Virus record (IMG/VR): IMGVR_UViG_2913123054_000007
Span: 1-4,919 of that record
DNA: 4,919 bases
Direction: 5' to 3' (one strand)
From: a virus
Taxonomy: Duplodnaviria > Heunggongvirae > Uroviricota > Caudoviricetes
Each line of letters begins with the position of its first letter. The first letter of the stretch is position 1. The notes under the pieces were generated by a model. The model searched no databases, was not told where the DNA came from, and saw nothing but the letters and a program-made list of their open reading frames with translations. Shown here piece by piece: positions 734 through 4,919 of the stretch. Both the position numbers and the translations under genes were made by a program.

Positions 734-1810
734 TCAGAGCAGTAAGTACGTTTTTTCTCTCTCATCAAGATACATTTTTGTTGTCTTCTCCGATGTGTGG
801 CCAAGTAGACGCTGAGCAAATTCTTCTCCACATGTCTCTTTGTACAATCGTCCAGCCAGACTTCTGATCTCGTGAAAAGTTGGTGGGTTTTCACTGAACT
901 GGATACCTGTTAATTTTCTGGCTGCGACAAATTTTTTTGTCAGGCCATCCGGGTGAATGCTGCCGTCAGGGCTGTTTTTTCTAATCCCGGCACTGATTAG
1001 ATAATCCCCCCTACTTACCAGGCGGCACCGTTCAACTATTGTACCAAGCCGTAATCCAGCGACCGGAAGGTTGAGTGACAGGGGGATAGCAATCATCATT
1101 CCCGTCTTAATTTGCCTGATGTGGAGACGATCATCATAAATATCACTGAACCGCATATTCGTTATGTCTTCGCGACGTTGTCCTGTTACAAGGGCTAAGT
1201 CCATAGCTAATGGGAACCATGCCGGAAGTTGGTCTGCTGCCTCCCTGATGCAGTTGTATGTCTTTAGTTTCAGTCGTTCTCTTGTAACTACTATTTTCGG
1301 TGCTCTTGTTGGCGTTACTGGATTTTGAGATATACGTCCTTCAACAATGGCCTCGCGGAACATATCAGATAACACAGAACGCATTGATCCTGCCATCGTG
1401 TTTTTCCCTCCTTCAATCCACGAATCAAGAAACTCGGCAATATGGCGAGTGGTTATTTCTGTCAGTAAAATCCCTCCCAGTTTTTCTTTTATTGTCTCCA
1501 GTTGATTTACCCGAATTTTATAAGTATTTCTGGACACTTTTCTCCTTATAAGAATCGTTTTGTAACGTTCGATCCAGTTTGACATAGTAAATGAATCGCC
1601 CCCTTTAAGTTTTTCAATTAAGGCTACAGGAGAGTAGGTTTTGTATATATAATGATTGGCTTCAATTGCCTGTGCTACCGCATCTCTTTTTGAAATTTTA
1701 CCTAGCGTAAATTCTTCTTTTGTCAGAGGATTGCGCCAGTAGTATGCTTTGTCCCTTCTTCGATATGTTAGGTTTCTAGGCAAATTGGGATCGTATTTTT
1801 TCCGCTGCAT
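734..1810 (-). CDS. int: Lambda-family tyrosine integrase
   Basis: 358 aa, ATG at 1810, stop TGA 734-736. It aligns along its length with lambda Int from memory (PNL..YYxRxPxTxKEF N-terminal arm-binding region; [11 protein letters not shown] vs lambda HELRSLSARLY; LLGH box; catalytic Tyr in KMYLDER near the C-terminus). Confidence 0.95.
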
Positions 1811-2057
1811 TTTTTAATTTCTCCAGTAACGGACTGTCTCTCCCTTGCCGACCAGTAGGCTGATGGTTTGTTATATCGGTATCAAACTTATTTGGGTTGA
1901 TATAGAATGCCTCCGGATCCACCCTGTAACTCCTCCCGTGCAGTTCAGGTGCGGGATAAATATTTCCATTCCTGGCCCACCGTCTCAGCGTTGATATTGA
2001 TGGTGGGTTATCCGGATATCTGAGTTTCCCCCACGTTTTGAGTGTCACAAGATTCAT
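1776..2057 (-). CDS. xis: Excisionase
   Basis: TLRRWARNGNIYPAPELHGRSYRV resembles the lambda Xis winged-helix region (TVRRWVRECRIFPPPVKDGREYLF). It overlaps the int start by 35 nt, as in lambda. I chose ATG at 2057 (MNLVTLK...) because AAGAGGT lies 7 nt upstream; the track's ATG at 2063 sits only 1 nt from that Shine-Dalgarno. Confidence 0.8.
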   Translation of the reverse strand: MNLVTLKTWGKLRYPDNPPSISTLRRWARNGNIYPAPELHGRSYRVDPEAFYINPNKFDTDITNHQPTGRQGRDSPLLEKLKNAAEKIRSQFA

Positions 2058-2079
2058 TGCCATACCTCTTACGATATGA

Positions 2080-2108
2080 CCGCCAGTAAATATACAGAAT
2101 ACTGGCGG
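2080..2108 (-). promoter_or_regulatory. 9-bp inverted repeat hairpin in the only sizeable intergenic gap of the operon
   Basis: CCGCCAGTA (2080-2088) and TACTGGCGG (2100-2108) flank an 11-nt loop, between the small-ORF stop (2164) and the xis start. No T-run follows on the - strand, so it is not a canonical terminator. Confidence 0.3.
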
Positions 2109-2163
2109 GCGTGGTTGATTTTTAATAATCAGCTATGAAGTTTTAATTTGAATACAATGCAAT

Positions 2164-2352
2164 TCACGAGGACTGAAGTTGCTCGCAATTAAAATTTATC
2201 AGTTTTACTTTCTGCTCTCTGGAAACGCCTGCTTCTTTTTTACCTGAGAGCATTTTTTCGCATTCTGATTTGGTTAACTTTGTTTTTGAGTACCTTGTCC
2301 AGTTGGTAGGAGAACCACCTTCCTTTTCAATAGTGGTGGTAATTTTATACAT
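2164..2352 (-). CDS. Small basic hypothetical protein (62 aa), possibly YdaC-like by synteny
   Basis: ATG at 2352 is preceded by GGAGGTG at the right spacing; stop TGA 2164-2166. The track's 86-aa version starts inside lar and lacks an RBS. Its position between xis and lar mirrors Rac (intR-xisR-ydaC-lar). I cannot confirm sequence homology from memory. Confidence 0.55.
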   Translation of the reverse strand: MYKITTTIEKEGGSPTNWTRYSKTKLTKSECEKMLSGKKEAGVSREQKVKLINFNCEQLQSS

Positions 2353-2575
2353 GAACACCTCCATTATTATTTCCAGTGGTTCGTTTATTCCATCTTTCGA
2401 GTGCTTCTTTTTCACTTCCACCATAACCGGTTCGGGATTTGCATCCGTTACACTTCGCTCGGTAATATCCTGAAATGGCTTTCACCGTTACTGATGGACA
2501 ACCACAAAATGGACATGGTTTGACTTTTGTGTATCGAACTGGTTTTTCTCCTGTGAGCTTTGTGGCTGCGCTCAT
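2345..2575 (-). CDS. lar: Lar-family restriction alleviation protein (zinc ribbon)
   Basis: 76 aa. CPFCG...CNGC forms a C-x2-C-x17-C-x2-C motif followed by EALERWNKR, typical of the Lar family as I recall it. The start ATG (2575-2573) overlaps the exo stop TGA (2574-2572) as ATGA. Confidence 0.75.
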
Positions 2576-3252
2576 TTCCATTGCTCCCCAAATACAAAAC
2601 CAATTTCAGCCAGTGCCTCGTCCATTTTTTCGATGAACTCCGGCACCATCTCGTCAAAACTCGCTATGTACTTTTCATCCCGCTCAACCACGACATAATG
2701 CAGGCCTTCACGCTTCATACGAGGGTCATAGTTGGCAAAGTACCAGGCATCTTTTCGCGTCACCCACATGCTGTACTGCACCTGGGCCATGTAAGCCGAC
2801 TTTATGGCCTCGAAACCACCGAGCCGGAACTTCATAAAATCCCGGGAGGTGAACGGGCATTTCAGCTCAAGGCCGTTGCCGTCACTGCATAAACCATCCG
2901 GAGAGCAGGCGGTACGCATACTTTCGTCGCGATAGATGATCGGGGATTCAGTAACATCCACGCCGGAAGTAAACTCAAACAGGGCTCTGGCGTCGTTCTC
3001 GTACTGTTTTCCCCAGGCCAGCGCCTTAGCGTTAACTTCAGGAGCCACACCGGTGCAAACCTCGGCAAGCAAGGTGTGGAAGTAGGACATTTTCATGTCT
3101 GGCCACTTTTTTCCTGAGCGGGGTTTTGCTATCACGTTGTGAACGTCTGAAGCTGTGATGACACCTAGCCGTAATTTGTGCCACGCATCATCTCCCTGTT
3201 CGACAGTTCTCACGTCGATCCCGGTACGCTGCAGGATAATGTCTGGTGTCAT
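2572..3252 (-). CDS. exo: Lambda exonuclease (Red alpha)
   Basis: 226 aa, [15 protein letters not shown]...GFVFGEQWK. It is essentially identical to lambda Exo from memory, with a few substitutions. The exo ATG overlaps the bet stop as ATGA. Confidence 0.97.
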
Positions 3253-4034
3253 GCTGCCACCTTCTGCCCTGCGGCTTTCTGTTTCAGGAATCCAAGAGCT
3301 TTTACCGCCTCGGCTTGTGTCAGTTCTGACGATGCGCGAATGTCGCGGCGAAGTATCTGGGAACAGAGCGGCAATAAGTCGTCATCCCATGTTTTATCCA
3401 GGGCGATCAGCAGAGTGTTAATCTCCTGCATGGTTTCCTCGTTAACCGGAGTGATGTCGCGTTCCGGTTGATGTTCTGCAGTGCATGCGGTATTTTCGAC
3501 AATGCGCTCGGCTTCATCCTTGTCATAAATACCAGCAAATCCGAAGGCCAGACGGGCACACTGAATCATGGCTTTATGCCGTAACATCCGTTTGGGATGC
3601 GACTGCCACGGTCCGGTGATTTCTTTGCCTTCTCGGGTTTTGAATGGTTCGCGACGGCACTCATCCATCCACTCGGTAACGCAGATCGGATGATTACGGT
3701 CCTTGCGGTAAATCCGGCATGTACATGATTCATTGTCCTGCTCAAAGTCCATGCCATCAAACTGCTGGTTTTCATTTATGATGCGGGACCAGCCATCAAC
3801 GCCCACCACCGGAACAATGCCGTTCTGCTTATCAGGGAAGGCGTAAATCTCTTTCGTCCACGGATTAAGTCCGTACTGGTTGGCGACGATCAGCAGCGCA
3901 ATGAATTGCGCATCGCTGGCATTACCTTTAAATGCCGTCTGGCGAAGAGTGGCGATCAGTTCCTGCGGGTCGACAGAATCCATGCCGACGCGTTCAGCCA
4001 GCTTCCCGGCCAGTGTTGCAAGTGCTGTACTCAT
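3249..4034 (-). CDS. bet: Red beta single-strand annealing protein
   Basis: 261 aa, [26 protein letters not shown]...; near-identical to lambda Bet from memory. AGAGG sits 10 nt upstream of the ATG at 4034. Confidence 0.97.
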
Positions 4035-4039
4035 TCGTT

Positions 4040-4339
4040 TTATACCTCTGAATCAATATCAACCTGGTGACGAGCAATGGTTTCAACCATGTACCGGATG
4101 TGCTCCGCCACGCGTTCCTGAAATTCAACATCGTTATCAAATGCGCGACTGATTGCCTGTTTGCTGGCACCGTGGCGTTGCAAATGGTCGATGCAGAGCG
4201 ATTCAAACAGGTGCTGGGGCAGACCTTTTTCCAGGTCGTCCGCCAGTTCCGTTTCTTTTTCTTCGCGAACGATCTTCTGGTAGTGGCGTGACCATGCCAG
4301 CTCTTCAATGCGATCAAAAATCGGGCATGTGCTCATCAT
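4040..4339 (-). CDS. gam: Gam, RecBCD inhibitor (short GamS-like form)
   Basis: 99 aa. ...[20 protein letters not shown]...[20 protein letters not shown] matches the lambda Gam C-terminal ~95 residues from memory. The start (ATG 4339 or 4336) lies inside the 3' end of the upstream ORF. Confidence 0.9.
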
Positions 4340-4919
4340 CCGTTACCCCAAAATTTTCAAGTTTGTTTGCGATCATCATTGCAATATCCGGAATTAATGG
4401 CGCTGAGGCTATACCTGCAGGATTCGCACATAAACCGTAAACCGCCGCAATCACCACTTGTCTTTTCCAGTCGAGTTTTTCTAATGATGAAGCTGCTGCT
4501 TCGCCAGTTTCATCACTGCAATCGCGATGCGGATCGCTGCCAGCATTCTCATTGTGCGTATGTTCTGTGCCTTCCATTTCCACCGGATCATTTTCCTTAG
4601 CTTCAACCTGATTCTCTTCATCGAATGTTTCCTGGTATGTTGCGTCGCCCATCACCGCACCACAGTCAGGGCAGTTATCCCCGCCAGTCTGACCGCAGGC
4701 ATTGCAGACTATTTCCGGTTCCTGTTGCACTACTGGCTCAGGTTGTTTCACATCCGGGCTGGTTTTTTCCGTTTCTGGCGTGTTTTGTTCCGTTTCTGGC
4801 TGGTTCTGGTACACAGAATCGCGAGTCTGGATCCCCTTAACCCATTTCGGATCGTTCGGGTCGCTAATTCCGTCAACAAATTCACCACGTGATGCAGCAA
4901 GCAATTTATCGGCATCGAC
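4314..4919 (-). CDS. Acidic, low-complexity protein with CxxC-x7-CxxC zinc knuckle; function unknown (5'-partial)
   Basis: The frame is open to the window edge: the track's 'M' at 4904 is a TTG and the reading frame continues (..[14 protein letters not shown]..). Stop TGA 4314-4316. About 40 D/E versus about 12 K/R by hand count. It has a PETExxT 7-aa repeat, [16 protein letters not shown] (~4660-4708) and a more hydrophobic C-terminal ~50 aa. I recognise no family. Confidence 0.6.

Follow-up and report, generated by a model that had tools for sequence, protein, structure and literature searches.

Organization of the locus

The window analysed here, a stretch of 4,919 nucleotides of prophage DNA, was found to carry the following phage genes, all of them on the minus strand.

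734-1810, minus strand: int
1776-2063, minus strand: xis
within 2164-2424, minus strand: DUF1187 gene
2345-2581, minus strand: Lar/RalR-family gene
2572-3252, minus strand: exo, exonuclease of the lambda exonuclease / YqaJ type (PF09588, E=1e-30)
3249-4034, minus strand: bet, annealase of the RecT superfamily (PF03837, E=5e-33)
4040-4339, minus strand: gam, host-nuclease inhibitor (PF06064, E=2e-55)
4314-4919, minus strand: ORF of 201 codons that runs in from the window edge and is closed by a TGA stop at 4316-4314

Comparison with database records revealed that the end of contig VATU01000013.1 (GCA_005781255.1) has exactly the sequence of the window in reverse complement, and since the window coincides with the contig end, we conclude that the last ORF was cut by the assembly. 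A complete copy was obtained from a sister assembly, GCA_004745385.1 (locus L006), in which this prophage occupies the identical yebY-side site and is 99.8% identical in its DNA. There the ORF spans positions 5700-7721 of the locus and encodes 673 aa, the last 201 of which are 100% identical to the window fragment. The ORF of the window (4314..4919, minus strand) is the 3′ third of this gene, codons 473-673 and the stop, the rest of it, on the 5′ side, being cut off where contig and window end. An earlier note, made from the letters of the window, had described a protein of at least 201 aa and proposed recovering the full ORF from the contig. The 201 open codons are indeed there, the true length in the sister assembly is 673 aa, and the source contig itself ends inside the gene.

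The 201-residue fragment contains 42 D/E, 13 K/R, 15 P, 11 Q and 6 C, in good agreement with the earlier hand count of about 40 acidic versus about 12 basic residues. Its net charge is -29, and that of the whole protein is -60 with a pI of 4.6.

The ORF overlaps gam by 26 nt (4314-4339) if gam starts at its first ATG, as the earlier note had stated, and by 23 nt if it starts at the second; the gene callers used on sister contigs take the second ATG, giving a Gam of 98 aa, while the first gives 99 aa. Between the two genes, no promoter-like or terminator-like site was found. The ORF is indeed tightly coupled to gam, and an overlap with neither promoter nor terminator intervening suggests that the two genes are co-translated, as had been proposed. 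In the sister contig the ORF is preceded by kilR, ydaE and a racC-like gene. The ORF had been thought to stand where lambda has kil, which is not the case: a kilR homologue lies three genes upstream in that contig, so kil is present and not replaced. Of the large genes in the early-left operon, the one with this ORF comes last; it is translationally coupled to gam-bet-exo, which replace recT.

Relationship to the non-nuclease part of RecE

No Pfam family was found in the fragment. It matched the NCBIfam model NF007259 (exodeoxyribonuclease VIII) at positions 464-600 of 877 (E=1e-79) as well as PHROGs 20376, 2082 and 607, several of which are labelled 'exonuclease'. Fragment residues 1-142 are 88% identical to residues 453-587 of RecE of the E. 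coli K-12 Rac prophage, a 7-residue insertion being counted, and 94% identical to RecE of Escherichia sp. E4742 (P0122). A full-length homologue, that of locus L001, aligned with positions 1-600 of NF007259 at 1197 bits, and PF06630 was found in the sister full-length copy (E=8e-65). In RefSeq the full-length homologues are labelled 'RecE family exodeoxyribonuclease' and have gam, bet and exo after them; the label given to the equivalent gene in Shigella phages 75/02 Stx and POCJ13 is 'exonuclease VII/VIII'. Given the NF007259 and PHROG matches, the alignment with K-12 RecE and the RefSeq label, the earlier statement that no named family was recognised is superseded; that it is not Kil-, CIII- or Ea10-like agrees with our searches, which returned no Pfam or PHROG match to those families. 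Nor is it a small acidic protein standing alone, the acidic segment being an inter-domain linker of a large multidomain protein.

The ORF is almost certainly the C-terminal 201 residues of a 673-residue nuclease-less protein of the RecE-N/YdfE type. The homology of such proteins to the N-terminal two-thirds of Rac exonuclease VIII, which are non-catalytic, is near certain. The protein is a variant of a known family, already present in sequenced phages and annotated genomes.

The homology to RecE stops at '...SDETGE' (RecE residue 587); the next 57 residues are unrelated to RecE, and a stop follows. Rac RecE (b1350, 866 aa) has the PF06630 region, the helical domain, a GISDPxDPKW motif, the acidic linker and the zinc knuckle in homologous form, and its gene occupies the same place in the early-left operon, 3′ of kilR, ydfE-like small genes and racC and 5′ of ralR/lar, xis and int. 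It differs from the window protein in that residues 588-866 form a PD-(D/E)XK nuclease, with PF12684 at 615-850, whereas the window protein has no nuclease and ends in a 57-residue two-helix tail; likewise, the downstream partner of Rac RecE is recT, whereas the window protein has gam, bet and exo instead. [quoted passage not shown] A Pfam search found PF12684 to be absent from the 657-, 673- and 682-aa proteins, and the curated NF007259 cut-off of 1269 bits was reached neither by the L001 homologue (1197) nor by the Stx-phage type (749) or the fragment (269). Because there is no nuclease domain and the scores fall under the cut-off, the product is not an exonuclease VIII but a paralogue of the RecE N-terminal region, and the 'exonuclease' labels that such nuclease-less proteins carry are misleading.

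Domain organization and conservation

The order of domains is near certain. The protein begins with an alpha/beta domain, followed by a helical one of about 270 residues and then by the GISDPxDPKW motif; a long acidic linker, in which the zinc knuckle lies, leads to a two-helix end. The window contains the following features of this arrangement.

4839..4904, minus strand: 22-residue motif conserved throughout the family (fragment aa 6-27)
4488..4820, minus strand: acidic Pro/Glu/Gln-rich linker, predicted to be disordered (fragment aa 34-144)
4762..4800, minus strand: 21-nt tandem duplication giving two PETExxT copies (TRF, 1.9 copies)
4662..4706, minus strand: zinc knuckle C-x2-C-x7-C-x2-C (C72, C75, C83, C86)
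4487..4488, minus strand: module junction '...SDETGE / AAASS...', equivalent to RecE 587/588
4317..4487, minus strand: 57-residue tail domain with two predicted helices (fragment aa 145-201)

The 22-residue motif is nearly invariant in the alignment of close homologues (A1), is also present in the consensus of distant members (A2, A3), and is kept even in members at 25-40% identity. The linker corresponds to residues 506-616 of the whole protein, has a net charge of -24 and aligns to the RecE linker that ends at 587; its acidity is kept across the family whatever its sequence (net -11 to -21 per 110 residues). A Pro/Glu/Gln-rich and probably disordered segment had been noted earlier, and both parts hold, with 15 P and 11 Q in the fragment and an AlphaFold pLDDT below 50 in the linker. 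The PETExxT heptad repeat is also present, in two copies only, which derive from the single 21-nt tandem duplication; the 7 residues so duplicated are missing in K-12 RecE, and a near-identical version was found in the Escherichia sp. E4742 RecE. The CxxC-x7-CxxC pattern of the zinc knuckle, likewise reported earlier, occurs in 235 of 240 close homologues; in alignment A1 three of the cysteines (C72, C75 and C86) never vary, and the conservation of the fourth, C83, is 90% or more. The knuckle is missing in the Salmonella clade and in most of the distant clusters.

Comparison with the Stx-phage type gave an omega of 0.05 for the motif (6-27), 0.11 for the zinc-knuckle core (72-99) and 0.42 for the acidic remainder, and for the tail an omega of 0.08 with saturated dS. 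These values point to purifying selection on the motif, the zinc core and the tail (omega 0.05-0.11).

The C-terminal tail

Around 4493-4474, close to the module junction, megablast matches change from Rac-type to Stx-phage-type records. The family consensus of the tail, LTYxQQLTIAALQGLCANPAxxxxxDDIPxMAxxLA, contains an invariant AA..G...NP, and in alignment A4 the invariant residues are A22, A23, G26, N30 and P31. In a census made by regex search and then with an HMM derived from A4, an alignment that contains the window tail, the tail was the ending of 20 of the 82 family representatives of at least 450 aa, and was always located at the extreme C-terminus. The consensus tail matched the C-terminus of phrog_26058 ('unknown function') with E=3e-16, and the window tail by itself matched weakly (E=0.075). 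The same PHROG also matches residues 246-406, the helical domain, of a full-length homologue (E=6e-32); this match was made on homologues, the helical domain lying outside the window. Judged by its conservation, the tail is a real domain of about 40 residues, predicted to form two helices, which replaces the RecE nuclease.

A PDB search with the tail profile matched no solved structure. The tip of the window tail (...DDEHMPDF), acidic and ending in Phe, was considered as an SSB-like tip and rejected, being missing from Stx-type and P0241-type tails. A stand-alone 69-aa protein with weak similarity to the tail was seen in an environmental siphovirus.

Structure prediction

AlphaFold predicted the fragment to be mostly disordered (mean pLDDT 46.9), with helices at fragment residues 151-164 and 176-188; the more hydrophobic C-terminal stretch of about 50 residues described in the earlier note is present, and it is here that the model places its two helices. 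For the full-length protein, a stand-in of 86% identity (P0123) was modelled with an alignment of 56 sequences. Its model has confident domains at 1-98 and 127-400, and past residue 400 it is of low confidence except for one helix, the knuckle, which forms weak beta elements (pLDDT 58-71), and the tail helices. Relatives of the confident N-terminal domains of the model were found among neither solved nor viral structures, and a PDB sequence search with the fragment profile returned only the RecE nuclease, which was contributed by other rows of the alignment. As the fragment model is too disordered, its fold is not comparable with that of Gam or of other DNA mimics.

Family architecture and named relatives

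Homologues of the ORF number in the hundreds. The family is small, accounting for 251 clusters (50% identity) among 1.84 billion representatives. Of its 82 representatives with a length of 450 aa or more, 21 end in a PD-(D/E)XK nuclease, 14 in a DEDDh exonuclease, 20 in the tail and 27 in no recognised domain, and a Pfam search of 56 diverse members found PF12684 in 27, PF16473 in 9 and RecT in 2. Among close relatives four endings follow '...ETGE': the K-12-type PD-(D/E)XK nuclease, a longer PF12684 nuclease, the PF16473 DEDDh exonuclease and the tail. In one nuclease-less member, a DEDDh exonuclease is encoded separately, two genes upstream. Precomputed matches to the newer Pfam families YdfE_N and YdfE_C were found on divergent members. 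Several divergent lineages, inducible Stx phages and the Stx2 prophage of O104:H4 among them, have the full-length ORF (624-683 aa) intact.

The closest counterparts in architecture are the tail-bearing relatives (phrog_26058; Shigella phages 75/02 Stx and POCJ13; HUS2011_RS10615 of the O104:H4 Stx2 prophage), which have the same domains and the tail consensus and which, in E. coli and Shigella, adjoin gam-bet-exo like the window gene. Compared with the Stx-phage type, the allele in the window is mosaic: its linker is Rac-like, identity over the acidic part is only 43%, and it has the 7-residue duplication. Its tail is 8 residues longer than in the tail-bearing relatives (...TDDEHMPDF), extending 26 nt into gam.

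The 'exonuclease' of the O157/Qin type (about 805-823 aa, phrog_2082) shares with the window protein a cassette of helix, motif, linker and knuckle, 70% identical to window aa 2-147, and the junction '...ETGE[TA]A'. It differs in its N-terminal part of about 440 residues, which is of the YdfE type, in its C-terminal PF16473 DEDDh 3′-5′ exonuclease, and in having no annealase or gam downstream. The K-12 pseudogene ydfE represents the N-terminal 256 residues of a DEDDh-type member, cut by IS2; such a member and the window protein have only the linker cassette in common.

Distribution and linkage to gam

Six independent loci have the gene next to gam or overlapping it (L001, L003, L006, L007, L009 and L010), L009 being that of the O104:H4 strain HUSEC2011, and in E. 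coli/Shigella all three tail variants adjoin or overlap gam-bet-exo. Among 5426 complete E. coli genomes, gam was found in 3186 and tail DNA in 106, and in 105 of these 106 the tail was contiguous with gam. This linkage of tail and gam in E. coli may be a matter of shared inheritance and not of function.

In the divergent tail-bearing members P0322, P0293 and P0284 the next genes are one of 67 aa, xis and int; gam, bet, exo and recT are all missing. As these members are without a recombinase, the protein does not strictly depend on a phage recombinase, and the idea that the tail is a Red-specific peptide, docking on Exo, Bet or Gam in place of a covalent bond to the nuclease, was discarded as a general rule.

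Proposed function

What the earlier note had observed in the sequence is confirmed, and its interpretation, in which the protein was a candidate anti-defence or host-takeover factor, is partly supported. Published accounts describe the N-terminal domain of RecE as of 'unknown function' (PMC11611040) and the function of the N-terminus as 'unclear' (PMC11610958), and no functional work on YdfE was found in the literature. According to a passage of PMC13642171 that summarises Fu et al. 2012, full-length RecE with RecT was about 20-fold more efficient than truncated RecE in linear-linear recombination. The reading that we tentatively favour, plausible to us though short of probable, is that the protein serves the early-left DNA-end and recombination module as an accessory or scaffold with no catalytic activity of its own; it is favoured because of the repeated fusion of the family to three unrelated DNA-end enzymes, the operon coupling and the RecE experiments. 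The segment in the window would then comprise a tether, flexible and acidic, together with the zinc knuckle and, at the very end, a helical adaptor making protein-protein contacts, either by self-association or by binding a partner; in the fused relatives an exonuclease or annealase would be covalently attached where the adaptor stands. A platform binding DNA ends directly was also considered. The strong acidity of the protein (net -60, pI 4.6) and the lack of any basic domain argue against direct DNA binding, and this candidate was weakened accordingly. The related proposal that the RecE N-terminal region is an autonomous unit, either fused to a nuclease or annealase or made as a separate tail-bearing protein, we regard as possible but rather unlikely.

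Closest to the interpretation of the earlier note is a Gam-like, anti-nuclease decoy, in which the acidic surface and linker would bind and block a host nuclease, RecBCD or another defence nuclease, and RecE would be a natural fusion of inhibitor and exonuclease, with the window prophage carrying the inhibitor separately. A Gam-like activity of large RecE is not a new idea, a passage of PMC13048471 citing Reyes 1981 for its proposal, and in that 2026 study RecET-mediated linear assembly was unaltered by Gam. The charge (net -29 in the fragment and -60 overall), with linker acidity conserved where sequence is not, is consistent with such a decoy, and so are the lack of gam in Rac, the anti-restriction Lar/RalR homologue in the same operon, and the stand-alone tail-bearing members that have no gam or recombinase and lie at the operon place of lambda gam-bet-exo. 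However, each of the six E. coli/Shigella-type loci that were examined has a true gam translationally coupled to the gene, making an anti-RecBCD role redundant there, and according to the laboratory that described full-length RecE, Red-gamma enhances RecET recombination (PMC4381043), which speaks against full Gam activity in RecE. There is also no sequence similarity to Gam (PF06064). Lambda Gam is likewise an acidic protein of the early-left operon, but it is a small folded helical dimer, a DNA mimic that inhibits RecBCD, whereas the acidic stretch here is predicted to be disordered and is the fastest-evolving part (omega 0.42), unlike known folded DNA mimics; moreover, the same linker sits within enzymes, between two domains. 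For DNA mimicry as such, composition is the sole supporting result. We therefore consider the decoy unlikely, though not negligibly so; if true, the prophage would possess a second, Gam-independent inhibitor or decoy of a host nuclease or defence.

Two further explanations have far less in their favour. The gene might be an evolutionary leftover, created when a gam-bet-exo cassette replaced the 3′ end of recE together with recT and left a functionless remnant running into gam. The gene is indeed mosaic, its linker being Rac-like (88-94%) and its tail and gam Stx-phage-like (73-81%), and the Rac and Qin prophages are known for decayed genes such as K-12 ydfE; yet the tail has invariant residues, is conserved in at least 20 clusters at 50% identity, always at the C-terminus, and has an omega of 0.08, albeit with saturated dS, and the ORF, at 624-683 aa, has stayed whole in a number of divergent lineages. 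Conservation and selection together largely refute a leftover, which we consider very improbable. Equally doubtful is a regulatory role in which the zinc knuckle binds DNA or RNA and controls expression of the early-left operon or translation of gam. The ORF does overlap the gam start, and conservation within the fragment is highest at the four cysteines and the flanking G-Q-x-G-G...P-D-C-G-x-V-M-G-D-x-T-Y, but the knuckle is confined to an E. coli-centred subset, while Salmonella and other clades are without it yet keep the acidic linker; its strongly acidic surroundings disfavour nucleic-acid binding, and no significant match to any nucleic-acid-binding zinc-finger family was obtained.

The locus bears on recombineering and direct cloning, of which RecE is a workhorse and in which its N-terminal 600 residues raise the joining of two linear DNAs about 20-fold. 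The window prophage offers a natural 'split' system, a RecE-N with its own terminal domain beside a complete Gam-Bet-Exo, in which action in trans can be asked about. If RecE-N did confer efficient linear-linear recombination in trans, the Red operons of Stx phages, including that of O104:H4, would carry an 'LLHR booster' that could be moved into lambda Red recombineering systems. The same type of gene is found in Shiga-toxin phages.

C-terminal tail of the window ORF

The tail of the window ORF, a two-helix C-terminal domain standing where RecE has its nuclease, closes with an 8-residue acidic extension whose last residue is Phe (...TDDEHMPDF; last 8 codons, window 4317-4340), and it is the stretch overlapping gam that encodes this extension. 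The extension is similar to acidic C-terminal tips, that of SSB for instance; it is absent from the Stx-phage and P0241 tail variants.

The following separate genes were found in the environmental siphovirus MW202601.1 (L014) and in L011, a P2-like (Cox/Int) element:

L014 3755-3922: putative zinc-ribbon gene, 55 aa
L014 3947-4156: stand-alone 69-aa protein with a tail-like motif (phrog_2201, E=6e-10)
L011 3209-3784: PF16473 DEDDh exonuclease, 191 aa, a separate gene
L011 4001-6043: P0272, a nuclease-less family member of 680 aa with a different C-terminus

In L014 the putative zinc-ribbon gene is directly followed by the gene for the 69-aa protein (motif REYFAALALQGLCAN...MADALI), an order that recalls the zinc knuckle followed by the tail inside the window ORF; the similarity of this protein to the tail is weak (tblastn E=0.09). 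In L011, P0272 lies two genes downstream of the DEDDh exonuclease, whereas at other loci the exonuclease and the RecE-N-type part form one fused protein.

Annotation of nuclease-less proteins

Proteins of the same type as the window ORF, without any nuclease domain, are encoded at L003 (2595-4643) and at L009 of strain HUSEC2011 (1572-3644). In phage and RefSeq records such nuclease-less RecE-N-type proteins are labelled exonuclease VII/VIII or "RecE family exodeoxyribonuclease", which is a systematic over-annotation.

Truncation of the ORF and closest relatives

The end of contig VATU01000013.1 is the exact reverse complement of the window, with its edge at 4919; the truncation of the ORF is therefore an assembly artefact. 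A probable cause of assembly breaks at this point is that each genome has RecE-like sequence in several of its prophages. In complete E. coli genomes, the number of places matching a 1020-nt query that runs from the ORF 3′ end through gam into the beginning of bet had a median of 2 per genome and reached 11; the whole query had no match above 94% in these genomes, and shorter stretches of it matched at 96-99%. The closest full-length relatives are RecE of Escherichia sp. E4385 and E4742 (P0121/P0122), with 97% identity over the N-terminal ~620 aa. A cryptic-clade Escherichia is a possible source.

Insertion site and RalR/RalA module

The following features were located in the window:

1-342: yebY, adjoining the SraC/RyeA and SdsR/RyeB pair
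within 462-606, (-): SraC/RyeA sRNA, convergent with SdsR/RyeB
within 462-606, (+): SdsR/RyeB sRNA
2168-2346, (+): RalA antitoxin sRNA (Rfam, 205.8 bits, full-length)
within 2164-2424, (-): DUF1187 gene
2345-2581, (-): Lar/RalR-family gene, 76-78 aa (PF14354)

The integrase gene ends ~130 nt from the sRNA pair, which has yebY alongside; the insertion site of the prophage is therefore next to ryeA/ryeB. At least two further prophages that are related (L010, L015/L016) occupy this site too. The RalA sRNA, identified by Rfam, lies antisense to the DUF1187 gene, and it adjoins the Lar/RalR-family gene; this set is a module of the RalR/RalA kind (type I toxin-antitoxin and restriction alleviation). 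The Rac prophage of E. coli K-12 has a module of the same sort.
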